Assembly (NCBI GenBank): GCA_046160485.1
Contig: JBJXGV010000010.1
Span: 5,644-69,643, forward strand
Length of the DNA: 64,000 bases
Origin: a bacterium
GTDB lineage: Bacteria > Orphanbacterota > Orphanbacteria > JBJXGV01
Reading direction: 5' to 3'
The position numbers and the translations under genes are program-made. Below the pieces are notes generated by a model. That model was not told where the DNA came from. It saw only the letters and a program-made list of their open reading frames with translations, and did not search any database. This document shows, in pieces, positions 9,735-30,303 of this stretch (position 1 is the stretch's first letter; every line of letters starts with the position of its first letter).

Positions 9735-10340
9735 GTGACGGAACCATCTGACATTCGCACGGACTGGGACCTCGCAAGGCAAGCTGCGGGAGGATGCGAG
9801 GAGGCGTGGCGCGCGATCTACGAGCGCACGGCCGACAAACTCTTCGCGTTCCTCTGCTACCAGTCGGGCAATCGCGAAGACGCGCTCGATCTCATGCAAG
9901 AGACCTACCTGCAAGCGCAGCGGCGCCTCGAGAGTTACCGGGGCGAGGCGCCTCTCGGTTCCTGGTTGCGCACGATCGCGCTGCGGAAGTCGCTCGATTG
10001 GCGGCGGCGCGTGCTCTCGCCGATGCGCCGCACGCTCGAGCTGACGGAGAACACCGCGATCGTCGAGGAGGAGAGTGACGTCGTGCAGTTTCACTCGGAG
10101 AAAGCCGCGCTTCATCGCGCGCTTAAGACGCTCTCGCCGCAGCAGCGCGCCGCGTTACTTCTTCGCGAATGGGATGGGCTTTCCTTCCGCGAGATCGCCT
10201 CGATGATCGGCTGCCAAGAAAACACGGCGCGCGTTCATCACACGCGCGCAAGAGAGAAGATGCGAGACCGAATGAAAGATGCCTTCGCCAACGACCCCGA
10301 GGCACTGTCAACAGAGCGCCTCAACGAGCAGAGAATATGA
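9735..10340 (+). CDS. ECF RNA polymerase sigma factor
   Basis: 'DALDLMQETYLQA...GSWLRTIA', 'LSPQQRAALLLREWDGLSFREIA'; GTG 9735 with GGGAGA RBS; ATGA overlap with next gene. Confidence 0.9.
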   Translation: MTEPSDIRTDWDLARQAAGGCEEAWRAIYERTADKLFAFLCYQSGNREDALDLMQETYLQAQRRLESYRGEAPLGSWLRTIALRKSLDWRRRVLSPMRRTLELTENTAIVEEESDVVQFHSEKAALHRALKTLSPQQRAALLLREWDGLSFREIASMIGCQENTARVHHTRAREKMRDRMKDAFANDPEALSTERLNEQRI

Positions 10341-16094: not shown

Positions 16095-17060
16095 CTAGTT
16101 TCCCGCCGCGAAAGGCTTCGGCAACACGGCGAGACCGACCAACCTGAGCGTTCCGTCGCCAATCGTTCCGAGCGCGACCGCGGCCCCCGTCGCGAGGTCG
16201 ACGCGATAGAGCACGGAGCCCGTCGCCGCGAACGCACGCTCGCTCTCGCCGGGACCCGAAAGTATGTCGAAGCCGGACTCGGAATCGAAGTCGACGCCGA
16301 GCGAGCCGATCGTGCGCAGCACGCCGTCGTTCGGTGGATCTTGCAGAACGAGAACGTCGGTGCCCGCGTCGATGTTGAAGAGCTGCGTCGTCGCGGCGCC
16401 GGCGATCGAGCGCGTGTACGCGGCCGCGGCGAGGCGCGGGCGCGTTCCGGCGTTCGCGTCCTTCGGCGCGTACGTCAGCGCGCCGTCCGTCGCCGCCGCG
16501 CCGAGATCGACATGCACACGAAGGTTCTGCCCGTTCTCCGCGACGAGCCGAAGGCGATCCGCCTGCGGATTGAAATCGAAACCGGAGTGCGTGCCGCCGT
16601 CGAACGGCGCCGTGAGCGTGCTCGCGCTCTTGGCCTTGCCGGTCGCCGCGTCGATGACGTAGAGGTCGTACCCGTCGGAGAGCGCGTAGAGGCGCGCGTC
16701 CGCGGGACGCACGTCGATCCCGACGAGCGTGCCGCTCGCGCCGGTGATCGGCGTCGAACTCACGACGCCGGGTGAAGCGGCGTTGAATCTCACGAGCGTA
16801 TTGTCGTGGGTCAGCGCGACGATCTCGACGTTGTCGGCAATGCCGGATTTCTGAGCGCTCTGCGAGTGGGCAACGCGCGCCGCGGGCGGCAGCGCCGGCG
16901 CGAACGCCGCCGCGACTACCGCGAGCGGAGCGAACCAACGCGCCAGCGGCAACGCACGCGAGAACTTCGCGCGACGCCCCCGCGACACGCAGCCCCGCGA
17001 CGCGCCGCCGGCACAGTTGAGTGTTTTCACGGTTTCGATCACAAGTTCACGTCCCCTCAA
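16095..17060 (-). CDS. DUF4394 domain-containing secreted protein (start uncertain)
   Basis: 'VGIDVRPAD', 'GFDFNPQADRLRLV', 'AAAYT', 'QDPPNDGVL'. Confidence 0.85.
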   Translation of the reverse strand: MRGRELVIETVKTLNCAGGASRGCVSRGRRAKFSRALPLARWFAPLAVVAAAFAPALPPAARVAHSQSAQKSGIADNVEIVALTHDNTLVRFNAASPGVVSSTPITGASGTLVGIDVRPADARLYALSDGYDLYVIDAATGKAKSASTLTAPFDGGTHSGFDFNPQADRLRLVAENGQNLRVHVDLGAAATDGALTYAPKDANAGTRPRLAAAAYTRSIAGAATTQLFNIDAGTDVLVLQDPPNDGVLRTIGSLGVDFDSESGFDILSGPGESERAFAATGSVLYRVDLATGAAVALGTIGDGTLRLVGLAVLPKPFAAGN

Positions 17061-17066
17061 ACTCTC

Positions 17067-17093
17067 TACGAGATCAGCGGGGGGTCCGGATCG
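17067..17093 (-). promoter_or_regulatory. Candidate ECF promoter CGATCC-N17-CGTA
   Basis: Immediately upstream of the 17060 gene; matches the two other copies. Confidence 0.45.
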
Positions 17094-17106
17094 CCCGAAC
17101 CCCCCG
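17078..17106. terminator. GC hairpin between the DUF4394 paralogues (terminator or RNA stabiliser)
   Basis: CGGGGGG-TCCGG...CCGAA-CCCCCCG inverted repeat; no clear U-tract. Confidence 0.4.
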
Positions 17107-17138
17107 GGAAGTGAGGCGCGCCGATGTTGTGTTCAGAG

Positions 17139-18050
17139 TTAGCGGTAGATCCCCTTGATCGCGCCCCACGTCGTTGCCTCGGTCGCGTTCGGAGGCGGCT
17201 CGCCGAAGATGCTCATGCTCCGAATTGTCTGCCCGCCGGCGATGGCGCCGAGCAGCGTCGCCGATCCGGTCGAGATGTCGAGCGCGTAAAGACTCGAGAC
17301 GCCGGCCGCGTTGTTGAACGCCGCGTACGCGACGCCCGTCGCGCCCGAGATATCGAACGCCGCCACGTTCGAGGGATTCACGCCGAGCGCACCGACCGTA
17401 TTGAGCACGCCGTTGTTCGGCGGCGACTGCGTCGCGAGAAGATTGAACACCGTCTCGACGTCGTAGAGCGTCGTCGTCGCCGGGGGCGGATCGAACGAGT
17501 TCGTGTAAGCCGCGGCCACGCAGTACGGATCCTCGCCGAAGTTCGGATCGGCGGCCGCGTAGCGCAGCGTCGAGTCGACCGCGACGATCGTTCCGAGATC
17601 CGGATGCGCGCGAAGATTCTGATCGAGATCGCTGATGATGCGGATGCGATCGACGGTGGGATTGAAGTCCATGCCGAACTCGGCGCCGTTGAGCGGCGGC
17701 GAGAACGGACCCGCGCCGATCGCGGTCGCGACGCCCGTCACGCGATCGATTTCATAGAGGCGGCTCGAGCTGCCGAGACCGTAGAGACGGCCGACCGGCG
17801 CCTTCGGCCGGAAGTCGACCGCGAGAATGTTTTCGCCCGGCATGAGGCCAGTCACGGGAACGCTGTACGTGATGCTCCCCGGCGTCGCCGTGTCGAAAAC
17901 CATGAGCGTGTTGGTGGTCGAGACGCAGTACGCGCCCTCTTGCGCGCGCGACGACGCCGGTGACGCGAGCAGTGCGGCGACGCTGAGCAGACCGGCGGGC
18001 ACGAGACGCAGACAACGCGAACCGAGCGTTAAGCGGGAACGACTCTTCAC
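17139..18050 (-). CDS. DUF4394 domain-containing secreted protein with C-terminal 'TWGAIKGIYR' tail
   Basis: GAAGGAGG RBS before GTG 18050; signal peptide; 'VDFRP', 'GMDFNPTVDRIRI', 'AAAYTN', 'QSPPNNGVL'. Confidence 0.85.
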   Translation of the reverse strand: MKSRSRLTLGSRCLRLVPAGLLSVAALLASPASSRAQEGAYCVSTTNTLMVFDTATPGSITYSVPVTGLMPGENILAVDFRPKAPVGRLYGLGSSSRLYEIDRVTGVATAIGAGPFSPPLNGAEFGMDFNPTVDRIRIISDLDQNLRAHPDLGTIVAVDSTLRYAAADPNFGEDPYCVAAAYTNSFDPPPATTTLYDVETVFNLLATQSPPNNGVLNTVGALGVNPSNVAAFDISGATGVAYAAFNNAAGVSSLYALDISTGSATLLGAIAGGQTIRSMSIFGEPPPNATEATTWGAIKGIYR

Positions 18051-18104
18051 GGAAAAACCTCCTTCGCAGGCGCGGGGCCTGCAAGATTGTGGTTGATGCC
18101 CAAG

Positions 18105-18130
18105 TACGCTCGGCGCGGAGAATCGGATGC
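18105..18130 (-). promoter_or_regulatory. Candidate ECF promoter GCATCC-N16-CGTA
   Basis: About 55 nt upstream of GTG 18050; third copy of the motif. Confidence 0.5.
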
Positions 18131-18195
18131 GGGGGTGCGGAAGATTTCTGGGAAGCGGTGACCGCGGAAATCGCGATCTGATACGCTGACCCGAC

Positions 18196-21060
18196 ATGCA
18201 GAGTCTCACCGACTATCATGCGAAGTATTTCGCCTACGAGCTGACGCGGCGCTGCCCTCCGGACAGCGTGGAGAAGCTCGCGGCCGCGCTCGTCGACGCG
18301 CAGGTCGACCTGAATCCGCACCAGGTCGACGCGGCGCTCTTCGCGTTTCGCTCGCCGCTCTCGAAGGGCGCGCTCCTCGCCGACGAAGTCGGGCTCGGCA
18401 AAACGATCGAGGCCGGGCTCGTCCTCTCGCAGAAGTGGGCGGAGCGTAAGCGGCGCGTCCTCGTGATCACGCCCGCGAACCTGCGCAAGCAGTGGTATCA
18501 GGAACTCACCGAGAAGTTCTTCTTACCGTGCCGGATTCTCGAGACGAAGTCGTACAACGCGGCGATCAAGCAGGGCCGCTTCCGACCGTTCGAGGCGGAC
18601 GAGATCGTGATCTGCTCGTATCAGTTCGCGAAGAGCAAGGCGAGCGACGTTCATGCGATGCCGTGGGACATCGTCGTCATCGACGAAGCGCACCGTCTGC
18701 GCAATGTCTACAAACCGGCGAACGTGATCGCGAACACGCTGAAGCAGGCTCTCGCTGGACGCGACAAGCTGCTGCTGACAGCGACGCCACTCCAAAACTC
18801 GCTGCTTGAACTCTTCGGCCTCGTGAGCTTCATCGACGAACACACGTTCGGCGACCTGAAGAGCTTTCGCGAACAGTTCGCGAGCCTGAGCCAGGAGCAG
18901 GTCTTCCACACGCTCAAGGCGCGGCTGAAGCCCGTCTGCCATCGCACCCTTCGCCGTCAGGTTCTCCCGTACATCAAGTACACGCGGCGTTGGCCGATCG
19001 TGCAGGACTTCACGCCCGAAGCGAGCGAAGACCGGCTCTACAACCTCGTCTCCGAGTACTTACAGCGCGACAATCTCCAGGCGCTTCCGGCGAGCCAGCG
19101 CACGCTCATGACGCTCGTCCTGCGGAAGCTGCTGGCGTCTTCGACGTTCGCGATCGCGGGCGCGCTCACCACAATCTCCGCGCGACTGAAGGCGAAGCTT
19201 CGCAGGCAAGAACCGACGGCGGCGCTCGAAGATGAACTCAGCGCCGACTACGAGGCCCTCGACGAAACCGCCGAAGAGTGGGACGAGGATACCGTAGCCC
19301 CGCCGCTCTCCGAAGGCGACCGCGCCGCGATCGAGCGGGAGATCGCCGATCTCGATGAGTTCGCGCGCCTCGCGACATCGATCGATCACAACGCCAAAGG
19401 AAAGGCGCTCCTCACCGCGCTCGGCATCGCGTTCGCGAAAGCAGCCGAACTCGGCGCCGCGCAGAAGGCCATCATCTTCACCGAGTCGCGCCGCACTCAG
19501 AGCTACCTACTTCGCGTTCTCGCGGACAGCCCGTTCGCCGAAGGAATCGTCCTCTTCAACGGCTCCAACACCGACGATCGGTCGAAACAGATCTACGCGG
19601 CGTGGGTCGCGCGGCACGAAGGCACCGATCGCGTGACGGGATCGCGCACCGCCGATATGCGCTCCGCGATCGTCGACTACTTCCGCGAGGAGGGTCGCGT
19701 CATGATCGCGACCGAGGCCGCCGCCGAAGGGATCAACCTCCAGTTCTGCTCGCTCGTCGTGAACTACGACCTGCCGTGGAATCCACAGCGCATCGAGCAG
19801 CGCATCGGCCGTTGCCATCGCTACGGCCAGCAGCACGATGTCGTCGTCGTGAACTTCCTCAACCGGAAGAACGAGGCGGACCAGCGCGTCTTCCGCCTTC
19901 TCGCAGAGAAGTTCCAGCTCTTCGAGGGGGTCTTCGGCGCGAGCGACGAAATCCTCGGCGCCATCGAGTCCGGCGTCGATTTCGAGAAGCGCATCGCCGG
20001 GATCTACCAGCGCTGCCGCAAGCCGGTCGAGATCCAGGTCGCGTTCGACCAGCTTCAGCTCGAACTCGGGCTCGAGATCGACGAGTCGATGACGCGCACG
20101 CGCCAGCAACTCCTCGAGAACTTCGACGACGAGGTCCGCGAGAAGCTCAGAATGCGCAACGAGGATTCAAAGGCGTACTTGAATCGCTACGAGCGCCTTC
20201 TCATGCAGCTCACGCGGCACGAGTTGGAAGGTTGCGCTGAGTTCGTCGACGATTCGTCGTTCCGGCTCAAATCGCAGCCGTTCCCGGATCGCGCCGGCGA
20301 GATCGCGCTCGGCTTGTACGAGCTGCCGCGCCGCTCGGGCGAGGCGCACCTCTACCGCCTCACGCACCCACTTGCCGCGAGCGTCCTCGAACGCGCGAAG
20401 GCCCGCGATCTCCCGCCCGCCGACATTCAGTTCGCGTACGGCGAGCACGAAGGAAAGATCACGCTGCTCGAGTCCTTCATCGGCAAGAGCGGCTGGCTCA
20501 CGGTATCCTCGCTCAGCGTCGAATCGCTTGATCAAGCCGAAGACCATCTGATCATCGCTGCGGCCACGGACGACGGGCAGGTGCTCGACGATGAAGTCGC
20601 GGCGCGCTTGCTCACGTTGCCGGGGCGTGTCGGCGGCTCAGCGCCAACCGGCGTTGAGCCCGCGGCGTTGGGGACGATCCTCGAGCAACGCCGCGCCGAC
20701 ATCCAGCGCGGAGTCTCGGAGCGCAACGCCCGCTTCTTCGAAGCCGAAGCCGACAAGCTCGACGGGTGGGCCGACGATTTGAAGCTCGGCCTCGAACGCG
20801 AGATTAAGGACATCGATCGGCAGATCAAAGAAGCGCGGCGCGCGGCAACCACCGCGCTGACGCTGGAAGCAAAGCTCGCGAGCCAGAAGCAGATCAAAGC
20901 GCACGAAGCCGAACGCAATCAGAAGCGCCGCACACTATTCGACGCGCAGGACCAAATCGACGCTCAGCGCACGGAACTCATTGCAAAGATCGAAGGCAAG
21001 CTCACACAATCCGTGTCGCTCGACGCGATGTTCTCGATTCGCTGGGAACTCGCCCGCTAA
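18196..21060 (+). CDS. SNF2-family helicase/ATPase associated with a type III R-M locus
   Basis: 'LLADEVGLGKT', 'DEAH', 'LLLTATP', 'EGINLQ', 'EQRIGRCHRYGQ'; coiled-coil C-terminus. Confidence 0.92.
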   Translation: MQSLTDYHAKYFAYELTRRCPPDSVEKLAAALVDAQVDLNPHQVDAALFAFRSPLSKGALLADEVGLGKTIEAGLVLSQKWAERKRRVLVITPANLRKQWYQELTEKFFLPCRILETKSYNAAIKQGRFRPFEADEIVICSYQFAKSKASDVHAMPWDIVVIDEAHRLRNVYKPANVIANTLKQALAGRDKLLLTATPLQNSLLELFGLVSFIDEHTFGDLKSFREQFASLSQEQVFHTLKARLKPVCHRTLRRQVLPYIKYTRRWPIVQDFTPEASEDRLYNLVSEYLQRDNLQALPASQRTLMTLVLRKLLASSTFAIAGALTTISARLKAKLRRQEPTAALEDELSADYEALDETAEEWDEDTVAPPLSEGDRAAIEREIADLDEFARLATSIDHNAKGKALLTALGIAFAKAAELGAAQKAIIFTESRRTQSYLLRVLADSPFAEGIVLFNGSNTDDRSKQIYAAWVARHEGTDRVTGSRTADMRSAIVDYFREEGRVMIATEAAAEGINLQFCSLVVNYDLPWNPQRIEQRIGRCHRYGQQHDVVVVNFLNRKNEADQRVFRLLAEKFQLFEGVFGASDEILGAIESGVDFEKRIAGIYQRCRKPVEIQVAFDQLQLELGLEIDESMTRTRQQLLENFDDEVREKLRMRNEDSKAYLNRYERLLMQLTRHELEGCAEFVDDSSFRLKSQPFPDRAGEIALGLYELPRRSGEAHLYRLTHPLAASVLERAKARDLPPADIQFAYGEHEGKITLLESFIGKSGWLTVSSLSVESLDQAEDHLIIAAATDDGQVLDDEVAARLLTLPGRVGGSAPTGVEPAALGTILEQRRADIQRGVSERNARFFEAEADKLDGWADDLKLGLEREIKDIDRQIKEARRAATTALTLEAKLASQKQIKAHEAERNQKRRTLFDAQDQIDAQRTELIAKIEGKLTQSVSLDAMFSIRWELAR

Positions 21061-21074
21061 CTCTGGAGCCCGAC

Positions 21075-22544
21075 GTGATCCCGAGCACACCGACCAATCA
21101 GAAGGAACTTGCGAGCCTGCTCAAGAAAGGCGAAGGGCAGTCGCTGGAGTTCAAGCGCTCGACGGCCGAGCTGCGCGAAGCGTTGCAGACGCTCTGCTCG
21201 TTTCTGAATGGCGCGGGCGGATTGGTGGTGTTCGGAGTGCGCCCCGACGGCACGCCCGAGGGACAGCAAGTTTCGGACAAGACGCTTCGTGAAGTCGCGC
21301 AAGCGCTCGATCAGTTCGAGCCGCCGGTGAGCGTCCCGATCGAACGGCTGCGTCTCAAGGCCGGGCGCGAGGCCCTCATCCTTCGCGCGGCGCCGCTCTC
21401 CGATGCGATCCCGTTCACGTTCGAGGGACGAGCGTACGAGCGCGTCGCGAGCACCACGCGCAAGATGTCGCAAGAGAAGTACGAGAAGCTGCTGCTGGAG
21501 CGCGCGCACTCGCGCCGACGCTGGGAGAATCAGCCGGCCGAAGGCACGCGCCTCAAGGCTCTCGACCGCGAAGAAATCCTGCGCACGCGCGAGGCCGCGA
21601 TTCAGCAGCGCCGCATCTCCGCCGCGGCCAGCCGCAGCGCGGGAGACGTCCTCGACCGTCTCGGCCTTCGCATCGATGGCGTCATCACCCAGGCCGCGCA
21701 AGTTCTCTACGGCACTCGCTTCATGCCCGACTATCCGCAATGCCGCCTCAAGATGGGCCGCTTCCGCGGCAGCACGGTCACCGGCGACATCGTTGACGAC
21801 CGGCAGGACTACCTCAACGCGTTCGCGGCCGTGCGCGAAGGGATGGCGTTTCTCGATAGAACGCTGCCCCTCTCGGCGCATTTCACGGAAGGCAAGATCT
21901 TCCGCGAGGATCGCCTCCCCGTCCCGCCGAACGCGCTGCGCGAGATCCTCCTCAACGCCGTGATGCACCGCGACTACTCCGACCCCGGTGGATATGTGGC
22001 CATTGCGGTCTTCGACGATCGCATCGAGATCCGCAGCGCCGGCCGGCTTCCCGCGAGCGTGACCGCCGAGATGCTCTCCGGCCCGCACCTCTCGAAGCTC
22101 CGCAACCCGCTCATCGCCGACGCCTTCCACCGAACGGGCGCCGTCGAGATGTGGGGACGCGGCACGAACCGCGTGATCGACGAGTGCAAGCGCTACGGCA
22201 TCGATCCGCCCGTCTTCACGGAGATGAGCGGCTTCGTGATCGTGACCTTCCGCGTGAGCCTGAATGCGACCACGCAAGTCACCCCGCAAGTCACCCCGCA
22301 AGTCACCCCGCAAGTCGCGGCGCTTCTCGAGGCAGCCCGTGAACCGAGGAGTCGGGATGAACTGAAGGCCGCGGCGGGCATCCGGGACAGAGAACACTTC
22401 CGCAAGCAGTTCCTTATTCCTCTCGTCGAGACCGGCTGGCTCGAACGCACGATTCCGGATAAACCGAACAGTCGGTTGCAGCGGTATCGGATTACGAAGA
22501 CAGGCGCCCACGCGCTAACCACTTCGACGCGGGAGAAAAAATGA
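21075..22544 (+). CDS. AlbA_2 (Schlafen-like) + HATPase-like + wHTH putative regulator
   Basis: 'GEGQSLEFK', 'SFLNGAGG...GVRPDG', 'ALREILLNAVMHRDY', 'RNPLIA', 'EMWGRGT', QVTP repeats, 'TIPDKPNSRLQRYRIT'. Confidence 0.85.
   Translation: MIPSTPTNQKELASLLKKGEGQSLEFKRSTAELREALQTLCSFLNGAGGLVVFGVRPDGTPEGQQVSDKTLREVAQALDQFEPPVSVPIERLRLKAGREALILRAAPLSDAIPFTFEGRAYERVASTTRKMSQEKYEKLLLERAHSRRRWENQPAEGTRLKALDREEILRTREAAIQQRRISAAASRSAGDVLDRLGLRIDGVITQAAQVLYGTRFMPDYPQCRLKMGRFRGSTVTGDIVDDRQDYLNAFAAVREGMAFLDRTLPLSAHFTEGKIFREDRLPVPPNALREILLNAVMHRDYSDPGGYVAIAVFDDRIEIRSAGRLPASVTAEMLSGPHLSKLRNPLIADAFHRTGAVEMWGRGTNRVIDECKRYGIDPPVFTEMSGFVIVTFRVSLNATTQVTPQVTPQVTPQVAALLEAAREPRSRDELKAAAGIRDREHFRKQFLIPLVETGWLERTIPDKPNSRLQRYRITKTGAHALTTSTREKK
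22273..22316 (+). repeat. 12-bp in-frame tandem repeat (CAAGTCACCCCG) x3.5 encoding QVTP
   Basis: Perfect copies at 22275, 22287 and 22299, partial at 22311. Confidence 0.95.
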
Positions 22545-23395
22545 CAACATTTCACTTGTTCCGAATCAAGGTCCTGAAGCGGAGTCAGCGACCGCTCTTC
22601 GAGCCTGAACAGTCGACGTCCGAGATTCTGCGCGAGGCCATTTCACAGAAACCCTCGGCAGAGCTGCGGAAAAATCACACGTGGCATATCGGAAACAACA
22701 CGGAACTTGACGAGAATGGCATCTACTTCGCGATCGGCCGGACGACTACCGCGACAGTGCCGCGGTATGACAAGAAAGAGGGCAACTTCACAGAAGCAGC
22801 ATCCGACACGGCGCCGTTCACACACGTTCTAGCCGACTTCCAGCTTCAAGTAGCGGGCATCGCCGCAAAGAGTCTCGTGGCACCGACCGTACCCGATATC
22901 GCCAGGAAGCTGGAGAAGGTGCTGAACAGTGCGCCCGCCGCATCAACGCACGAGGTCGATTTCGAGATCTGCCCGATCACTGATCCGGAAACCTTCATCG
23001 AGATACTGCGCTCCGCATACGCGATCGAGAAGTTTTCCTTCACTGTCTCTCGGCCGAATCCTTTCGATGCCAACAAAGAGATAATGCGACCGCTGGCTTC
23101 CTTTTTGAGCGCAGCTTCCGCCACGCGAGGCCGCGCGAGCATCTCAGGTACAAGCCTGAACGCCGACTCTCTCGAGGACGTCGCAAGATCGGCAGCCGTC
23201 GCAGGTGAGGATGCAGAAGCCCGGGTTCGAGTGTCCGCGCACGAAACACCGGTCGTTAAGCGCCTCCGAGGCAACGCCGTTGCGCTGACTGAAGAGGAAC
23301 CGGACTCAAAGGAGAAGCGGCTTGGACTCCTCGCTCGGATTCGTGCGACTTTCTCCAAGTTGCGTCAGGAACCCGACGTCGGATCCAAATCATGA
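22541..23395 (+). CDS. Hypothetical soluble protein (284 aa), possibly DUF4747-like; candidate defence protein
   Basis: Intact ORF, ATGA-coupled on both sides, visibly lower GC; 'FSFTVSRPNPFD' recalls DUF4747-type proteins (unverified). Confidence 0.7.
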   Translation: MTTFHLFRIKVLKRSQRPLFEPEQSTSEILREAISQKPSAELRKNHTWHIGNNTELDENGIYFAIGRTTTATVPRYDKKEGNFTEAASDTAPFTHVLADFQLQVAGIAAKSLVAPTVPDIARKLEKVLNSAPAASTHEVDFEICPITDPETFIEILRSAYAIEKFSFTVSRPNPFDANKEIMRPLASFLSAASATRGRASISGTSLNADSLEDVARSAAVAGEDAEARVRVSAHETPVVKRLRGNAVALTEEEPDSKEKRLGLLARIRATFSKLRQEPDVGSKS

Positions 23396-23925
23396 ACTAC
23401 TGGCACTGGTTTTTTCGCGGGACGAGCGGCGAACCCGGCTACAGGAAGTTCGTGAACCGTTGGCTGCTATTTCACGCTGTCGTTGGCGCGGCGCTTTTCT
23501 TTCTCGTGCCCATTTCACTCAAGGACGCCGCGAACACGGTCCTGCTTCCACTCACCGGGGTCTTCATTGGCCTCTCATTCGCGTGGGCCGGCAATGCGCT
23601 CACTCTCTTGCAGTCCGAAGAAATCGAGCATCTCGCGGAGCACCGCGTCGGCGACCTCAAAGAGTACGTCTTCACTTATCAGTCAGCGATTCTCGCGATT
23701 CTCGTTACCCTTTCAGTCTGGGGTATCGCGGGTCTTGGGGTGATCGATAGCCCCAGTCCGATCCGGTGGGCTCATAGGCTGTATCCTGCTGTCGCGGTTG
23801 CACTCTATGGTCTAGCGAGCCTCACGCTGCGAGAGTGCTGGCATGTCGTCTTGTTCTCGCAGCTTCTTCTGCTCGCCAGACGCGAAATCCGCCGCGCGAC
23901 ACGACCACCGGAAAACAGTGGTTAG
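23392..23925 (+). CDS. Hypothetical 4-TM membrane protein (177 aa); candidate defence effector
   Basis: Four hydrophobic segments; ATGA overlap with upstream gene; low-GC codon use. Confidence 0.7.
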   Translation: MNYWHWFFRGTSGEPGYRKFVNRWLLFHAVVGAALFFLVPISLKDAANTVLLPLTGVFIGLSFAWAGNALTLLQSEEIEHLAEHRVGDLKEYVFTYQSAILAILVTLSVWGIAGLGVIDSPSPIRWAHRLYPAVAVALYGLASLTLRECWHVVLFSQLLLLARREIRRATRPPENSG

Positions 23926-23972
23926 TTGATGCCAGTGCGGTCTCACTATTCGCTCAAGATCGGTTTCAGGTG

Positions 23973-25682
23973 ATGCGTAACGCGAAGCTGGAACTCACGT
24001 GGATCGGGAAGGAGAACCGGCCGAAACTGGAGCCGCGCATCCTGCTCGGAGAGCCGGAGAAATCGCATCACGCGAAACATCGAGTGGCCGAGAACGACCT
24101 GTTCGACAACCGCCTGATCTTTGGGGACAACCTGCTCGCGCTGAAAGCGCTCGAAGCCGAGTTCGCAGGGAAGATCAAGTGCATTTACATCGACCCGCCG
24201 TTCAACACCGGCCAAGCGATGGAGGACTACGATGATTCGCGAGAGCATTCAATTTGGTTGAGTCTGATGAGAGATCGTCTCGTCTTGCTTCAGCGACTTC
24301 TCTCGCCAGACGGAACGCTGCTGGTGCACATAGACGACAACGAGCTCGGGTATCTAGTCGTTCTGCTCGACGAACTCTTCGGCCGCGACAATCGACTCTA
24401 TGTCGTCACATTCAAGCAAGGGTCAGCCACTGGCCACAAGTCCATCAACCCCGGCTGCGTCAGCACAACGAATTTCCTCCTGATGTACGCGAAGGATAAA
24501 TCAAGGTGGAACCCGAATAGAGTCTTCACTGCGCGCGAGCGGGACACGCGCTATGGCCAATACATCGAGAACCTTGAAGATCCATTCGGGCAATGGCGGA
24601 TCATCACCCTCATGAAGGCCTTTGCCGTCGCGAATCGGATATCGGAGAAAGACGCGCGGCTACTCGCTAAGAGCCATCCGGCGAAACTCGACGAGTTCGT
24701 CGTGAGTCGGGCACCGTGCGTCGTCCAGCTTGCCAAGCCGAACTATGAGAGCGTTAGCGCGGAGGCGCGGAAGCTCATCGATCGCTCAGAAGAGGACGTT
24801 GACGAAATCTTTCGACTTCAACGTGATGAGTATTCGGACATCTACCTCAAGGGTGGCAAACGCATTCTCTTCTACTCCGACAAACTGAAAAAGGTTGATG
24901 ACGAATGGGTTGCAGCCGAGCCGTTGACAACTCTATGGGACGACATTCTCTCGAACAATCTCCACGCGGAGGGTGGCGTCACGTTTCCAAAGGGGAAGAA
25001 ACCAGAGGGCCTAATCAAGCGCGTACTGGAGCTGTCGACAACCGCTGGCGACTGGATCCTCGACTCCTTCGCCGGCTCCGGCACGACCGGCGCGGTCGCG
25101 CACAAGATGGGCCGACGCTGGATCATGGTCGAGCTGGGCGAGCACTGTCACACGCACATCATCCCGCGCATGAAGAAGGTCATCGACGGCGAAGACCCGG
25201 GCGGCATCACCGAGGCCGTCGGCTGGAAGGGCGGCGGCGGCTTCCGCTACTACCGGCTCGCGCCTTCGCTCATGGAAAAGGACAAGTGGGGCAACTGGGT
25301 CATCAACAAGGACTACAACGCGGCGATGCTCGCCGAGGCGCTGTGCAAGCTCGAAGGCTTCACGTACGCGCCGAGCGATTCCGTCTACTGGCAGCACGGC
25401 CGCTCCACCGAGCGCGACTTCATCTACGTCACGACGGCGAGCTTGAGCCACGACCAGCTTCAGCAGCTGAGTGACGAGGTCGGACCGGAGCGGTCGCTCC
25501 TCGTGCTCTGCACCGCGTTCCGCGGGCGCGGCGAGTACGCGAACCTGACGGTGAAGAAGATTCCGAAGCAGGTGCTGTCGCGCTGCGAGTGGGGCCACGA
25601 CGACTACAGCCTGCGCGTCGAGAACCTCCCGAAGGCGCCGCCGAAGCCGGGGCAGATAAAGATGGAGCTGGCTGGGGAATGA
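23973..25682 (+). CDS. mod: Type III R-M DNA methyltransferase (Mod, beta-class amino-MTase)
   Basis: 'KLELTWIGK', 'LIFGDNLLALKAL', motif IV 'IDPPFN', 'KPEGLI', motif I 'DSFAGSGTTG'. Confidence 0.9.
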   Translation: MRNAKLELTWIGKENRPKLEPRILLGEPEKSHHAKHRVAENDLFDNRLIFGDNLLALKALEAEFAGKIKCIYIDPPFNTGQAMEDYDDSREHSIWLSLMRDRLVLLQRLLSPDGTLLVHIDDNELGYLVVLLDELFGRDNRLYVVTFKQGSATGHKSINPGCVSTTNFLLMYAKDKSRWNPNRVFTARERDTRYGQYIENLEDPFGQWRIITLMKAFAVANRISEKDARLLAKSHPAKLDEFVVSRAPCVVQLAKPNYESVSAEARKLIDRSEEDVDEIFRLQRDEYSDIYLKGGKRILFYSDKLKKVDDEWVAAEPLTTLWDDILSNNLHAEGGVTFPKGKKPEGLIKRVLELSTTAGDWILDSFAGSGTTGAVAHKMGRRWIMVELGEHCHTHIIPRMKKVIDGEDPGGITEAVGWKGGGGFRYYRLAPSLMEKDKWGNWVINKDYNAAMLAEALCKLEGFTYAPSDSVYWQHGRSTERDFIYVTTASLSHDQLQQLSDEVGPERSLLVLCTAFRGRGEYANLTVKKIPKQVLSRCEWGHDDYSLRVENLPKAPPKPGQIKMELAGE

Positions 25683-25882
25683 AGCGCGCGAGTCCAGGCA
25701 TCGCCTTCGCTGAATACGAGAATTCCGACGCAGTGCGTCGGAATTCCGCAAACGAGGGAATTCCTTACGCACTGCGTAAAGAATTCGCGCAGGTCGCGAT
25801 TCGCCACGCACCGCGTGGCGAATCCCCTAGAGCCCTTGCGGCGATAGCGGCTGGAGTTATTTCGCGGGATGCGCGACAATGA
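25679..25882 (+). CDS. 67-aa ORF built on palindromic repeats; possible DUF1016 (YhcG) relic
   Basis: ATG overlaps Mod stop (ATGA) and its TGA overlaps the next ATG; peptide MKRASPGIAFAEYENSDAVRRNS...IRHAPRGESPRALAAIAAG. Confidence 0.35.
   Translation: MKRASPGIAFAEYENSDAVRRNSANEGIPYALRKEFAQVAIRHAPRGESPRALAAIAAGVISRDARQ
25720..25824. repeat. Three palindromes with exact 39-bp periodicity
   Basis: GAATTCCGACGCA-G-TGCGTCGGAATTC (25720-46), GAATTCCTTACGCA-C-TGCGTAAAGAATTC (25758-86), GATTCGCCACGC-ACC-GCGTGGCGAATC (25798-824); centres 25733/25772/25811. Confidence 0.9.
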
Positions 25883-26133
25883 GATTCGAATTAACCGCAC
25901 ATGCCAAGGAAAGCTTGCGGAAGCGCCCGAACATCCGATTGGAGTGGGTCGAGCGCGTGATCGAGGGACCGGAGCGCGTCGAAGTTGATCGGGTCGACGC
26001 TGAACTGGAACATCGCCTCGGGCGCGTGCCGGAATATGGTGGTCGTGTACTTCGCGTGATCGTCCGACGAGGCACGTCCCCGCTGCGGATCGTCACGTTG
26101 TTTTTCGACCGCAAGATGAGGAGCCAGCTATGA
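25879..26133 (+). CDS. DUF4258 domain protein (putative toxin, RelE/BrnT-like)
   Basis: 'FELTAHAKESL...GRVLRVIV...IVTLFFDR'; paired with DUF2283. Confidence 0.75.
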   Translation: MRFELTAHAKESLRKRPNIRLEWVERVIEGPERVEVDRVDAELEHRLGRVPEYGGRVLRVIVRRGTSPLRIVTLFFDRKMRSQL

Positions 26134-26354
26134 AGCTCAGAATTGACGAAGAGGCCGACGCGCTGCATCTCCAGCTCGTGGATGTTCCCGTGAATGAGTC
26201 CGAGGAGGTCGCGCCAGGCATCATCGTCGACTACGACGAGGCCGACCAGATCGTAGGCATCGAGATCCTCCATCTCTCGAAGAGGCCGCACCCTGTCAAT
26301 CTGATGGACGTCCAGCTCGAGAGCCGCCCGAGAAGACTCGCATCCGGCGAATAG
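26130..26354 (+). CDS. DUF2283 domain protein (putative antitoxin)
   Basis: 'DEEADALHL...SEEVAPGIIVDYD...IVGIEI'. Confidence 0.85.
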   Translation: MKLRIDEEADALHLQLVDVPVNESEEVAPGIIVDYDEADQIVGIEILHLSKRPHPVNLMDVQLESRPRRLASGE

Positions 26355-26369
26355 CGGCCGTGCCGTGAC

Positions 26370-29081
26370 ATGAACCGCCACGTCAACGCGATCGCTGGGC
26401 GTCTGAGCCTGCGCCCGCCGCAGAGGCGCTCTCTCGAGATTCTCGACCGCATCACTGAGATCGCGCCGCCGAAGAAGGGCGCGGATGTGGCGGCGGCGCT
26501 CGACGCGATTCGCAGCGAATTCCCGCAGGTCACGGACTTCGAGCGCGAGTTTCCTTCAGTCTGCTTCGCGCTCGCGACGGGCGTCGGCAAGACGCGGCTG
26601 ATGGGGGCGTTCATCAGCTACCTGCGACTCGCGCACGGCATCAATCACTTCTTCGTGCTGGCGCCGAACCTCACGATTTACAACAAGCTCATCGCCGACT
26701 TCACGCCGAACACGCCGAAGTACGTCTTCAAGGGAATCGCCGAGTTCGCGACCGAGCCGCCGAAGATCATCACGAGCGACAACTACGAGTCGGGCGCGGG
26801 GCTGCGACCGGCGCTGGTTCCCGGGTTCGAACGCGAAGTGCACGTGAACATCTTCAACATCTCGAAGATCAACTCGGAGGTGCGCGGCGGGAAGTCGCCG
26901 CGTATCAAGCGGCTTTCGGAGTACATCGGCGAGAGCTACTTCGACTATCTGGCCGGGCTGCCAGACCTCGTGCTGCTGATGGACGAGTCGCACCGCTATC
27001 GCGCGAGCGCGGGTGTGCGCGCGATCAACGAGCTGAAGCCAGTGCTTGGTCTGGAGCTGACGGCGACGCCGGTCGTGGAGACGACGAAGGGCGCGGTGCG
27101 ATTCAAGAACGTGATCTACGACTACCCGCTCGGCGCGGCGATGGCGGACGGCTTCGTGAAGGAGCCGGCCGTCGTCACGCGCAAGAACTTCAATCCGGCC
27201 GGCATGCTGCCTGAGGCGATCGAACGCATGAAGCTCGAGGACGGGCTGCGGCTGCACGAGAGCGTGAAGGTCGATCTCGAGACGTATGCGCGCGAGAACG
27301 ATCAGGCCATCGTGAAACCGTTCCTGCTCGTGATCGCGCGCGACACGACGCACGCGGGCGACCTCGTGAAGCTCATCAAGTCTGAGAGTTTCTTCGAGGG
27401 GCGCTACGCGGACAAGGTGATCCAAGTCGACTCGAGCCGGAGCGGCGCCGAGGAAGAGGAGATGATCGAGCGCCTTCTCAAGGTCGAGCACGCGGACGAG
27501 CCGACGGAGATCGTGATCCACGTCAACATGCTGAAGGAAGGCTGGGACGTGACAAATCTCTACACGATCGTGCCGCTGCGCGCCGCGAACGCTCGCGTCC
27601 TCATCGAGCAGTCGATCGGCCGCGGCTTGCGGCTGCCGTACGGGAAGCGAACGGGCGTGACGTCCGTCGATCGCCTCAACATCATCGCGCACGACAAGTT
27701 TCAGGAGATCATCGACGAGGCCGGGCGGCCGGAGTCCACCATCCGGCTCCAGGCCGTCGAGATCGACGCCGACGAGCTTGCGCGGAAGACCGTGACCGTC
27801 GTGTCGCAGTCGCGACTCGCGACAGCGCTGGGGCTCGTGCCGCCGAATCTGACCGCAAGCACGATTGTGGCAGGTAGCGAGGAACCTCACGCGTTCACGA
27901 ATCCCGAAGACCAGAAGGTCGCGCAGCTCGTGTACGGGCAGATCCGCAAGCTCGAGCACCAACCGCAGCTCGTGCCGACAATCGCCTATTTGATGAAACC
28001 GGATGTTCAGGCCGCCATCGTGCGCGAAGTCGAGGCGCAGTACACACCCGCGCAGATGACGCTCACGGGCATCGTGGAGCGGCCCAACATCGTGGACGTG
28101 ACGGCTAAGACGGTCGCGCTCGTCGTTCGGGAGACGATCAGCATCCCTCGTATTTCTGTCGCTCCCACTGGCAACGTGACGTCGGGCTTCCGGCCGTTCA
28201 CGCTCACGCTCGACGCGCTAAACTTTGCGGCCGTTTCCGAAGACCTGTGGATTCGGCATCTGCGGACGAGTGAACTCGAAGTTCTGACACTCAGCGACTC
28301 GGGCATCGAAGAGGCGCGCCTCGAAGACTACATCGTGTTCGGATTGGCCGACTTCAACGACCTCGCGTACGACACACACGCTGATTTTCTCTACGAACTC
28401 GCAAGCCAGGCCGTGCGGCATTTTCGCGCCTACTTATCCGAGGACGACACGCGCAAAGTGCTTCGATGCCATCAGCGCGAGATCACGCGACTCATCCGCA
28501 GCCAGATGCAGCCGCACTACTGGGAAGAAGCAGACGGCTTTGAGGTGCAGGTTCGGCAGACGTTCACCGAGATGAAGCGAAGCGCCTACAAGCAAACGGT
28601 CGGCGAGCCAGTGCTCGACTTTCGCGCGTCGCCGAGGGACAAGAGCAACATGATGAGGTATCTATTCGGCGGGTTTCAGCGCTGTCTCAATCACGTCGAA
28701 AAGTTCGCATCCGATGCTGAGCGTAAGCTCGCGGTCATCCTCGAGCGCGACACGATCAAGTGGTGCAGGCCACCCAGAGGCCAGTTCCTGCTTTTCTACC
28801 GCGACGGTGCAGATCAACTCGAGTATCAACCGGACTTCGTTGCGGAGGCCGAGGAAGTGATCTACATGCTCGAGCCGAAGGCGAGCGATCAACTGAACGA
28901 TCCGATCGTTCTTGCAAAGAAGGACGCTGCGGTCACGTGGTGCCGCAACGCCGCGAAGCATTCGACGACATACGGCGGCAAACCATGGCGGTACGTCTTG
29001 ATCCCGCACGACCAGATCGCGGACAACATGACGCTCGAAGCGCTCGCGAAACGGTTCGGAACTAGAGAGACGGGCGCGTGA
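26370..29081 (+). CDS. res: Type III restriction endonuclease Res subunit
   Basis: 'LSLRPPQ', Walker A 'LATGVGKT', 'DESH', 'LTATP', 'LKEGWDV', 'EQSIGRGLR', C-terminal nuclease 'YQPDFVAE...LEPK'. Confidence 0.9.
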   Translation: MNRHVNAIAGRLSLRPPQRRSLEILDRITEIAPPKKGADVAAALDAIRSEFPQVTDFEREFPSVCFALATGVGKTRLMGAFISYLRLAHGINHFFVLAPNLTIYNKLIADFTPNTPKYVFKGIAEFATEPPKIITSDNYESGAGLRPALVPGFEREVHVNIFNISKINSEVRGGKSPRIKRLSEYIGESYFDYLAGLPDLVLLMDESHRYRASAGVRAINELKPVLGLELTATPVVETTKGAVRFKNVIYDYPLGAAMADGFVKEPAVVTRKNFNPAGMLPEAIERMKLEDGLRLHESVKVDLETYARENDQAIVKPFLLVIARDTTHAGDLVKLIKSESFFEGRYADKVIQVDSSRSGAEEEEMIERLLKVEHADEPTEIVIHVNMLKEGWDVTNLYTIVPLRAANARVLIEQSIGRGLRLPYGKRTGVTSVDRLNIIAHDKFQEIIDEAGRPESTIRLQAVEIDADELARKTVTVVSQSRLATALGLVPPNLTASTIVAGSEEPHAFTNPEDQKVAQLVYGQIRKLEHQPQLVPTIAYLMKPDVQAAIVREVEAQYTPAQMTLTGIVERPNIVDVTAKTVALVVRETISIPRISVAPTGNVTSGFRPFTLTLDALNFAAVSEDLWIRHLRTSELEVLTLSDSGIEEARLEDYIVFGLADFNDLAYDTHADFLYELASQAVRHFRAYLSEDDTRKVLRCHQREITRLIRSQMQPHYWEEADGFEVQVRQTFTEMKRSAYKQTVGEPVLDFRASPRDKSNMMRYLFGGFQRCLNHVEKFASDAERKLAVILERDTIKWCRPPRGQFLLFYRDGADQLEYQPDFVAEAEEVIYMLEPKASDQLNDPIVLAKKDAAVTWCRNAAKHSTTYGGKPWRYVLIPHDQIADNMTLEALAKRFGTRETGA

Positions 29082-29128
29082 ACCACTTCCCCCGACTCGT
29101 CACAGACGGCACCTAAGGAGTTCAACTC

Positions 29129-29713
29129 ATGGCCAAGACCGCTTCTACGATGCTCGCGCTCGGCACACCGGCGCCCGACTTCGCGCTGCCGGATGTCGTG
29201 ACGGGCGGCACGATTTCGCTCGAGACGTTTCGCGGCAAGACTGCGCTGCTCGTGATGTTCATCTGCCGGCACTGTCCGTTCGTGATTCATGTGCAGGATG
29301 AGTTGGCGCGCGTGGGGCGCGACTACGCGAGCACGGATCTCGGCATCGTCGCGATCAGCGCGAACGACGCGTCGGTTCACACCGAGGACGCGCCCGCCAG
29401 CTTGCGCGAGATGGCGCAGAACCTCGGCTTCACGTTCCCGCTCTGCTACGACGAGACGCAGGCCGTAGCGAAGGCATTCCGCGCCGCCTGCACGCCCGAC
29501 TTCTATCTCTTCGACGCGGCGCGCCGGCTCGTCTACCGCGGCCAGCTCGACGACGCGCGCCCCGGCAGCGACGCGCCCGTCACGGGGCGCGACCTACGCG
29601 CGGCGATCGACGCGACCCTCGCCGAGCGCGCGCCCGACGCGGCGCAGCGCCCCGGCATCGGCTGCAACATCAAATGGAAGCAAGGCAACGCGCCGGAGTA
29701 CTTTGCCACATAG
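29129..29713 (+). CDS. Thioredoxin-family (AhpC/TSA-like) protein
   Basis: 'MFICRHCPFV', 'ACTPDF', 'YRGQLDD', 'GCNIKW'; TAAGGAG RBS. Confidence 0.9.
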   Translation: MAKTASTMLALGTPAPDFALPDVVTGGTISLETFRGKTALLVMFICRHCPFVIHVQDELARVGRDYASTDLGIVAISANDASVHTEDAPASLREMAQNLGFTFPLCYDETQAVAKAFRAACTPDFYLFDAARRLVYRGQLDDARPGSDAPVTGRDLRAAIDATLAERAPDAAQRPGIGCNIKWKQGNAPEYFAT

Positions 29714-29739
29714 GAGAGTGCCCACATTAGGAGATCGCA

Positions 29740-30303
29740 ATGCGCGACGACGATCACTTCCTCAGCCACAGCGTCGTGTTCAACATCCATCTCCGAAATT
29801 TCGTTCTGGCGAACAGCCCCGACGTCGTGTGGCTATTCACCGATGATGCCGACGCCCTTCTCGCGCGCTTTTGGAACCGAACGGCCGCCGGCATCGATGA
29901 GCCTCATCGGCGACCCGCGGCTGGACTGACCGGGCTGTCCATACACCGCGTCGAGAACCACCTGACTCGCGTGATCGCGTTTCCGCCGCCCGAGAGGATG
30001 ACCGAGAACTACTTCATCGCGATCGCGTGCCCTCCGGAGAATGAGCGCGGCGATTCGCCGGAGCGACCGCCCCCAACCCCGCGATACTTCACGCTCGAGA
30101 TGGGCCACGAAAGCCGGAAGACGGGAACCGTGCTAGCGGAGTGGACGCCGCATGCGCACCTGAACTACGGGGAAGGGCCCGAACCGAAAGAATCGGCCTT
30201 CTTGGCGTGCGTGGCACGCCTTCTATCCGGAGACGTAAAGGTTGACGCCGCATTCATGCGACCGACGCCCCCCACATTGCCGCGCGACGAGACCCGACAC
30301 TGA
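29740..30303 (+). CDS. Hypothetical protein (187 aa)
   Basis: AGGAG RBS, intact ORF co-oriented with thioredoxin; no family recognised. Confidence 0.5.
   Translation: MRDDDHFLSHSVVFNIHLRNFVLANSPDVVWLFTDDADALLARFWNRTAAGIDEPHRRPAAGLTGLSIHRVENHLTRVIAFPPPERMTENYFIAIACPPENERGDSPERPPPTPRYFTLEMGHESRKTGTVLAEWTPHAHLNYGEGPEPKESAFLACVARLLSGDVKVDAAFMRPTPPTLPRDETRH

Follow-up and report, generated by a model that had tools for sequence, protein, structure and literature searches.

RexAB of phage lambda is the oldest known abortive-infection (Abi) system, and both RexA sensing and RexB action are still unsettled. RexA consists of a globular domain split in two (1–139 and 248–279) and a dimerization domain (residues 143–234), and RexA, Sbash gp30, and CarolAnn gp44 bind DNA non-specifically (PMC11077077). 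In three papers, Sbash gp30/gp31, CarolAnn gp44/gp43, and Butters gp30/gp31 are described as prophage defense pairs, each made of a cytoplasmic protein and a downstream four-transmembrane (4-TM) protein. The soluble proteins reach DUF4747 only by weak HHpred matches. The authors liken the pairs to lambda RexA/RexB and propose that the soluble protein, activated by infection, opens the membrane protein as an ion channel, whereupon ATP and membrane potential drop and the infection is aborted. A "DUF4747/CarolAnn prophage system" is also listed among known immune operons, with a restriction-modification (R-M) operon upstream at some loci, in a further study (PMC13373217). The RexABpp pair of P. 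putida (PP_5643/PP_5644) is encoded by a prophage, close to a CI-like repressor, with an HHpred match to RexA at 98% probability. Here, we analyzed a 64,000-nucleotide stretch (the window) of contig JBJXGV010000010.1 from a bacterium of the phylum Orphanbacterota, in which two adjacent genes, coding for a soluble protein of 284 amino acids (aa) and a 4-TM protein of 177 aa, lie inside an operon of a SNF2-family helicase and a type III R-M system. We judge that this pair is probably a RexA-superfamily sensor with a membrane effector, that is, a defense module of a highly divergent RexAB-type Abi kind.

Both open reading frames (ORFs) are uninterrupted. An ATGA overlap at 22541 joins the stop codon of an upstream 489-aa regulator gene to the start of the 284-aa gene, and a second ATGA overlap at 23392 couples the 284-aa gene to the 177-aa gene. 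A profile search with the 284-aa family against 1.84 billion representatives retrieved 645 of them at E ≤ 1e-3 and 400 at E ≤ 1e-30, and 267 proteins homologous to the 177-aa protein were found at E ≤ 1e-3. The many conserved full-length homologues of both proteins thus indicate real genes rather than chance ORFs. A preliminary description made from the sequence had reported two intact genes, four TM segments in the smaller product, ATGA coupling between the two genes and with the upstream regulator, and a position between the SNF2 helicase and Mod of a type III R-M operon. All of this was borne out, the last point by Pfam and PADLOC, and the word "regulator" proved reasonable at the domain level, since the upstream product carries AlbA_2, HATPase_c_4, and a Fic-like_C winged helix-turn-helix (wHTH) domain.

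The family of the 284-aa protein was then approached through its relatives and its predicted fold. A word-indexed search recovered 20 proteins, 4 of which, the 284-aa protein included, carry a precomputed PF15931 (DUF4747) assignment, in keeping with the preliminary remark that the protein loosely recalls DUF4747; hmmscan with DUF4747 gave no match for the 284-aa protein and one match below threshold (E 0.015) among the 20 family members. In the ESM Atlas, the 284-aa protein fell among clusters with DUF4747 in 12–43% of their members, some nearby clusters carried DUF6731, and one was "Protein rexA" (PF15969 in 71%); the 10 best family-bearing matches were all in agreement. The top structural match in PDB was lambda RexA (8TWQ), and the best match in BFVD came from Siphoviridae sp. 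ctylc9 (E 1.9e-13). As modeled, the protein has a seven-stranded N-terminal part with helices up to about residue 136, a middle part of four strands and three helices (residues 139–230), and a long C-terminal helix (residues 257–275). This order of elements agrees with the published RexA layout, and the model shows a split globular domain with a central dimerization domain as in the RexA fold. Judged from these predicted structures and cluster placements, the 284-aa protein most likely belongs to the RexA/DUF4747/RdgC-like fold group; the sequence comparisons given below did not show this link. Invariant residues of the sensor include W48, H49, and N52 and a P172-N173 motif.

The AlphaFold2 (AF2) model of the 177-aa protein (predicted local distance difference test, 89.1) contains four long helices at residues 23–38, 43–74, 89–114, and 127–170, and a hydropathy scan likewise found four hydrophobic stretches. 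The termini are net positive and the central loop is acidic, the charge of the N and C termini suggesting an N-in/C-in topology. Across 38 sequences of the family, the polar helix residues N68, Q97, and R147-E148-C149-W150 do not vary. Structural neighbors in PDB were generic bundles, and the BFVD search returned nothing at E ≤ 0.001; its first neighbor was a weakly matching 165-aa uncharacterized Sbash protein (E 0.1, prob 0.97, TM-scores 0.49/0.52). Sbash gp31 has 165 aa and is the sole 165-codon coding sequence among the 77 of 89 Sbash features listed, and the BFVD protein would by its length be gp31. Rank 9 was held by a 172-aa protein of Siphoviridae sp. ctylc9, which had also supplied the best match of the 284-aa protein. 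These model-based scores are weak, but they come from an independent protein and point in the same direction as those of the 284-aa protein. A complex prediction for the two proteins (score 0.00; mark 0.32) weighed neither way.

Neither protein had a significant match in Pfam, PADLOC, NCBIfam, or PHROGs. An 8xMP row for the 177-aa protein (E 0.082, 13 bits where the cut-off is 30) was set aside as noise, as were two PHROGs without a known function (E 0.065 and 0.2). Several results weigh against a RexAB-type assignment. The RexA models (Pfam PF15969 and PADLOC RexA) did not match the 284-aa protein, whereas they detected lambda RexA as a positive control at 1e-97 and 9e-110, and the RexB models (Pfam PF15968 and PADLOC RexB) did not match the 177-aa protein, whereas lambda RexB was recognized. 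In hhalign comparisons, the 284-aa family alignment reached a probability of 0.04% with lambda RexA and 0.25% with CarolAnn gp44, and the 177-aa family alignment 0.13% with lambda RexB and 0.14% with CarolAnn gp43. The profile of the 284-aa family did not find RexA among PDB sequences, and a tblastn search of 50,697 phage records with each of the two proteins gave nothing at E ≤ 1; lambda RexA itself has just four distinct homologue levels in the phage collection. Finally, the global TM-score of the 284-aa model against RexA is low (0.31–0.32), which a hinge between the two domains would explain. The silence of PADLOC is a different matter. CarolAnn gp44/gp43 and Sbash gp30/gp31 are also without a PADLOC match, whereas lambda RexA and RexB do match; because validated pairs are silent too, that silence is no evidence of novelty for the window pair but reflects library coverage, which is a lesson for annotation. 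The branch that escapes PADLOC and the Pfam/NCBIfam thresholds comprises the 645 sensor representatives and at least 267 4-TM partners.

To examine the pair in other genomes, 35 loci with relatives of the 284-aa protein were fetched (16 genomic, 1 viral, and 18 metagenomic). Directly 3′ of the RexA-like gene, a member of the 177-aa 4-TM family occurred in 20 of 31 readable loci and was replaced by an FRG-domain protein of about 270–283 aa in the other 11; one of the two partners was therefore present in 31 of 31, the remaining 4 loci ending at a contig edge. The FRG domain was confirmed by Pfam for L010, L013, and L015, of which L015 and L013 also match PADLOC PDC-S15; L032–L037 were recognized in tblastn searches that had these FRG proteins as queries, and L014 and L016 by translations near-identical to those of L013 and L015. 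In L015, the RexA-like and FRG pair, of the Opitutales type, spans 9971–11666. No 177-aa homologue was found anywhere in the genome of this FRG-type locus, and four 4-TM-type genomes contained exactly one each, at the pair. These findings suggest that some PDC-S15 matches in fact belong to systems of two genes, the other gene being RexA-like (L010, L013–L016, and L032–L037), so that a partner can be assigned to some FRG/PDC-S15 candidates.

A maximum-likelihood tree was built from 28 RexA-like rows, i.e., 27 loci and the window, leaving out L010 (tblastn range crossing a stop), L017 and L028 (match in two frames), and the partial L011, L029–L031, and L037. The partner label changed once on this tree, at a split of weak support (69/90), and none of 500 label shuffles gave so low a count; sensor type and effector type thus seem to travel together. 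In the two-frame cases, the RexA-like match is split at 10001–10827 of L017 and 1223–2040 of L028, with an intact 4-TM gene 3′ of it; frameshifting, pseudogene formation, or misassembly could account for the split.

The surroundings of the pair are rich in defense genes. The tally covered 113 proteins no more than three genes from the pair at 23 loci and omitted L033 and L034 (near-copies of L032), L016 (a near-copy of L015), and loci too short for neighbors. The commonest Pfam families were DEAD (7), Eco57I methylase (7), ResIII (6), Helicase_C (6), and MmeI_Mtase (6), followed by N6_Mtase (5), N6_N4_Mtase (5), SNF2 (4), and Mrr_cat (3), with RVT_1, AAA_15, AAA_21, and resolvase at two each. 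Type IIG-like enzymes stand directly 5′ of the pair in L002, L012, L020, and L022, and a methylase-Mrr fusion lies 3′ of it in L003. Some loci border housekeeping or mobile genes instead (carbamoyl-phosphate synthase, rhomboid, and transposase). We also observed that L007 (3074–13593; record title Candidatus Aminicenantes bacterium) carries on one strand a PLD-SNF2 helicase gene (1150 aa), a 488-aa gene, an Eco57I-type methylase gene, the RexA-like/4-TM pair, and then a gene for a 705-aa reverse-transcriptase protein.

The SNF2 neighborhood of the window has counterparts among these loci. In L015, L016, and L032–L034, SNF2 directly precedes a RexA-like and FRG pair followed by Mod- and Res-like genes, and L035 and L036 show the same SNF2, RexA-like, and FRG order up to the contig end. 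These seven loci form one clade (100/100) distant from the 284-aa protein of the window, which sits in the 4-TM group of the tree; adjacency to SNF2 has therefore arisen at least twice. In another phylum, that of the L015 genome, 401 genomes were sampled, and 32 of them had SNF2 homologues at E ≤ 1e-100, the identity reaching 77%. From 35 matches, 29 loci were fetched, omitting G101 (the same as L015), the contig-end cases G279, G247, G358, and G138, and the weak second match in G484. A Mod-like gene lies downstream of SNF2 in 25 of the 29 and a Res-like match in 11, the SNF2-to-Mod-like distance ranges from about 0.6 to 4.3 kb, and none of the 29 has a RexA-like, 177-aa-like, or FRG gene. When ten proteins encoded in this space were scanned, they proved to be DUF2130 and an AAA_15 ATPase (both L073), an AAA_23/SMC_N-type ATPase (L074), Abi_2 (L075), NYN (L077), DUF6119 (L078), AAA_15 with OLD-like TOPRIM and a KAP NTPase (both L079), AAA_13 (L081), and AAA_15/AAA_21 (L082). 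The diversity of Abi-type genes between SNF2 and mod thus identifies a variable cargo slot, for which the RexAB-like pair is one option. The SNF2-slot-Mod-Res operons at loci L043–L101 are a possible hotspot of defense cargo, and the slot, with Abi_2, OLD-like, AAA_13, KAP, and NYN elsewhere, is a source for mining more of it. Four SNF2 homologues of 42–50% identity (L087, L090, L097, and L100) are followed directly by two genes of about 1000–1100 aa and have no slot with type III Mod/Res; these distant loci may represent a different, DISARM-like layout.

This position raises the alternative that the module is wired as a guard, monitoring the SNF2/type III R-M machine, the DNA that this machine produces, or the inhibition of the machine by phage anti-restriction proteins, and killing the cell when restriction fails. 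The PrrC anticodon nuclease in the EcoprrI locus is a precedent for such a guard, and the AAA_13 ATPase in the same slot of L081 is presumably of the PrrC/RloC family. The pair is translationally coupled into the R-M operon, a SNF2 gene of the window's type lies upstream of the RexA-like gene both here and at seven other loci (L015, L016, and L032–L036) through at least two origins on the tree, and a DNA methylase lies no more than three genes away in at least 10 of 23 loci. In addition, R-M operons followed by DUF4747/CarolAnn operons are noted in PMC13373217. However, no such SNF2 gene stands directly upstream in 27 of the 35 fetched loci, some flanks are housekeeping or mobile as described above, the independent SNF2 adjacencies amount to two only, and the absence of the pair from all 29 homologous SNF2 operons fits a general insertion hotspot equally well. 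We therefore consider guard wiring unlikely. We would also assign a low probability to the broader proposal that the large unannotated RexA/DUF4747 branch is a modular sensor that co-diversifies with interchangeable effectors, a dedicated 4-TM family or an FRG-domain protein, and was recruited at least twice to the SNF2/type III slot as a second-line guard. If guard wiring were true, the module would be a RexAB counterpart of PrrC-EcoprrI, reading a DNA state made, or left unprocessed, by the restriction machine.

Base composition and distribution indicate that the module was horizontally acquired. The genes for the 284-aa and 177-aa proteins have GC contents of 0.575 and 0.582, GC contents at third codon positions (GC3) of 0.66 and 0.68, and a CpG frequency per nucleotide of 0.11. 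The window outside the island has a GC content of 0.672 and a CpG frequency of 0.184; within the island, SNF2 and the regulator have GC contents of 0.637–0.654, and SNF2, the regulator, and Res GC3 values of 0.82–0.84. The preliminary description had depicted the pair as lower in GC and with less of the host's CGCG-rich signature; the values are indeed lower, but the low-GC3 block is not confined to the pair and extends to Mod (GC3 0.61) and the DUF4258 gene. This mosaic in GC3 points to a joint or later arrival of the pair, Mod, and DUF4258. The RexA-like gene was found in 0 of 100 other related genomes searched, i.e., in 1 of 101 counting the window's own, and the SNF2 gene at E ≤ 1e-100 in 0 of 9 other genomes of the window's phylum, which indicates that the whole island is foreign. 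Record titles of the family loci name Bacillota, Sedimentisphaerales, Gemmatimonadales/Gemmatimonadetes, Armatimonadota, Rhodospirillaceae, Acetobacter, Aminicenantes, Victivallis, Bacteroidota, Opitutales, and Polyangiaceae; these scattered lineages, together with the absence from 100 relatives, argue for horizontal spread. Thus, the earlier proposal of a horizontally acquired sensor plus membrane-effector module agreed with the constant pairing (31 of 31), the methylase, helicase, and restriction nuclease neighbors, and the distribution among relatives, and the check it had put forward on the neighborhoods of homologues returned both pair conservation and a defense-rich context.

Horizontal acquisition of the island would also suit a toxin-antitoxin (TA)-like cassette, with a membrane toxin that the soluble protein restrains or sets off, which keeps the mobile R-M island in its host without any phage sensing. 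The operon does hold a second TA-like pair (DUF4258/DUF2283), and over-expression of RexA in P. putida causes RexB-dependent growth inhibition. Every characterized relative, however, protects against phages, and the replacement of the membrane protein by an FRG/PDC-S15-type partner in 11 of 31 loci fits a sensor with swappable effectors better than a fixed TA pair, so that we regard addiction or stabilization as quite improbable. A role as an RdgC-like housekeeping DNA-binding protein, i.e., a recombination or replication modulator beside an unrelated membrane neighbor and outside defense, is hardly credible given the lack of any Pfam match to the 284-aa protein, RdgC included, the strict partner in 31 of 31 readable loci, the patchy distribution (1 of 101 related genomes), and the defense-rich neighborhood.

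For the favored RexAB-type Abi module, the following course of events can be proposed by analogy with the described pairs. A dimer of the 284-aa protein would bind DNA non-specifically and sense a phage-induced state of DNA or of DNA-protein complexes, as RexA, Sbash gp30, CarolAnn gp44, and RexApp may do. Binding would change the conformation of the sensor, which would then contact and activate oligomers of the 177-aa protein through a cytoplasmic loop or tail of the latter. The 177-aa protein would in turn depolarize or permeabilize the inner membrane, in the manner proposed for RexB, Sbash gp31, and RexBpp, and growth of the infected cell would halt, which is how the pair could protect against phages. 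In the FRG-type sister clade, a like sensor would drive an FRG-domain effector. In this reading, the module is no subunit of the restriction enzyme but a swappable Abi-type cargo, one of many that occupy the space between SNF2 and mod in a family of SNF2-Mod-Res operons that has been transferred widely. A sensor combined with two unrelated effectors, 4-TM or FRG, provides a natural experiment on the signal that the sensor passes on, and its recurrence beside R-M systems makes it a test case for layered defense, with restriction first and suicide second.

The genes of the operon are listed in Table 1. The whole run from SNF2 to Res lies on one strand with very small gaps. The SNF2 helicase matches Pfam SNF2-rel_dom (5e-34) and Helicase_C as well as PADLOC DrmD (1e-207); against NCBIfam DISARM_DrmD_b it scores 694 bits, under the cut-off of 950, and the genes that accompany it here are, according to PADLOC, type III Mod and Res. 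The longest Mod ORF opens at a GTG at 23835, so that 91 nt of it would lie within the 4-TM gene. In PADLOC, the alignment to MTase_III opens at residue 47 of that long ORF, and translation from the ATG at 23974 begins with MRNAKLELTWIGKE, the same as in homologues; the true Mod start is therefore probably the ATG at 23974 rather than the GTG.

Table 1. Genes of the SNF2-Mod-Res operon in the window (window coordinates)
Feature	Coordinates	Strand	Remarks
SNF2-family helicase, DrmD-like	18196..21060	+	First gene of the SNF2-Mod-Res core operon
AlbA_2/HATPase_c_4/Fic-like_C (wHTH) putative regulator, 489 aa	21075..22544	+	Pfam
RexA-fold DUF4747-superfamily soluble protein, 284 aa, proposed sensor	22541..23395	+	ATG start
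Four-TM membrane protein, 177 aa, proposed effector	23392..23925	+	ATG start
Type III Mod methyltransferase	23974..25682	+	PADLOC MTase_III 2.9e-192; Pfam N6_N4_Mtase
DUF4258 small protein, 84 aa, between mod and res	25879..26133	+	Pfam DUF4258 3e-10
DUF2283 small protein, 74 aa, overlaps DUF4258 gene	26130..26354	+	Pfam DUF2283 9.7e-18
Type III Res restriction subunit	26370..29081	+	PADLOC REase_III 3.9e-193; Pfam ResIII 1e-20

The AlbA_2-type protein is translationally coupled to the pair and carries a wHTH domain, and on these grounds it may be the regulator of the cassette; regulator-related proteins also occur in some homologous SNF2-Mod-Res operons (L079, L080, and L085). Between its HATPase_c_4 and Fic-like_C/wHTH domains, this protein contains a tandem peptide repeat, TPQV three times after TTQV (22290–22340; residues ~406–421). 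A promoter and terminator scan of 16900–29900 gave sites no more numerous than in shuffled sequence. The sequencing runs listed comprised four DNA runs from a single biofilter-metagenome study and no RNA run. A 279-aa ORF without a Pfam or PADLOC match (17124–17963) runs in the same direction just 5′ of SNF2. The DUF4258/DUF2283 pair at 25879–26354, whose members we take to be toxin-like and antitoxin-like, respectively, resembles a small TA-type insertion, and in L015 the mod-res junction is occupied by two other small genes (181 aa and 114 aa).

Compared with the described systems, the window pair stands nearest to those of the RexAB type. It shares with lambda RexA/RexB the gene order, a soluble protein of about 280 aa followed by a small 4-TM protein (279 + 144 aa versus 284 + 177 aa), and the two-domain fold of the soluble protein. 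It differs in having no detectable sequence similarity to RexA/RexB and in its longer 4-TM protein, which represents a separate, strongly conserved family. Whereas lambda RexAB lies near the phage repressor, the window pair is located inside a SNF2/type III R-M operon, coupled to the AlbA_2-type regulator, and its flanks are SNF2, that regulator, Mod, and Res rather than a prophage repressor. RexABpp, compared by its description, likewise differs as a prophage pair beside a CI-like repressor. With Sbash, CarolAnn, and Butters, the window pair shares a cytoplasmic protein, here probably of the DUF4747 type, and a downstream 4-TM protein; their soluble proteins, however, have about 370 aa versus 284 aa, and those pairs are prophage-borne in Actinobacteria, whereas the window family spans at least nine bacterial lineages according to record titles and was found once in the viral collection. 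RdgC (PDB 2OWL/2OWY), a recombination-associated ring that binds DNA, is a housekeeping single gene product with an extra tip domain, unlike the window protein with its strict partner and defense context, and the latter was placed neither in the RdgC sequence family nor among single housekeeping genes.

Kiwa, to which the preliminary description had likened the pair, also combines a membrane protein (KwaA, 4-TM) with a soluble partner, KwaB, a DUF4868 protein. Its gene order is the reverse of the soluble-then-TM order seen here, the window's soluble protein has a predicted RexA fold, and no PADLOC family, KwaA and KwaB included, matched either protein at E ≤ 0.1; the likeness was therefore abandoned. 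The suggestion of an unrecognized, candidate new system did not hold either, because the soluble protein has a predicted RexA fold and lies in the DUF4747/RexA neighborhood, and a DUF4747 protein followed by a 4-TM protein is a published architecture. Among the matches listed in the literature searched, for the terms used, there was no report of a RexA-like and FRG pairing or of RexA-like genes in SNF2/type III R-M operons. Thus, the module is most likely a divergent branch of the known RexAB/Sbash/CarolAnn/RexABpp kind, and what is new is that this branch is large and chromosomal, has a 4-TM family of its own and an FRG protein as the alternative effector, and recurs in association with R-M systems.

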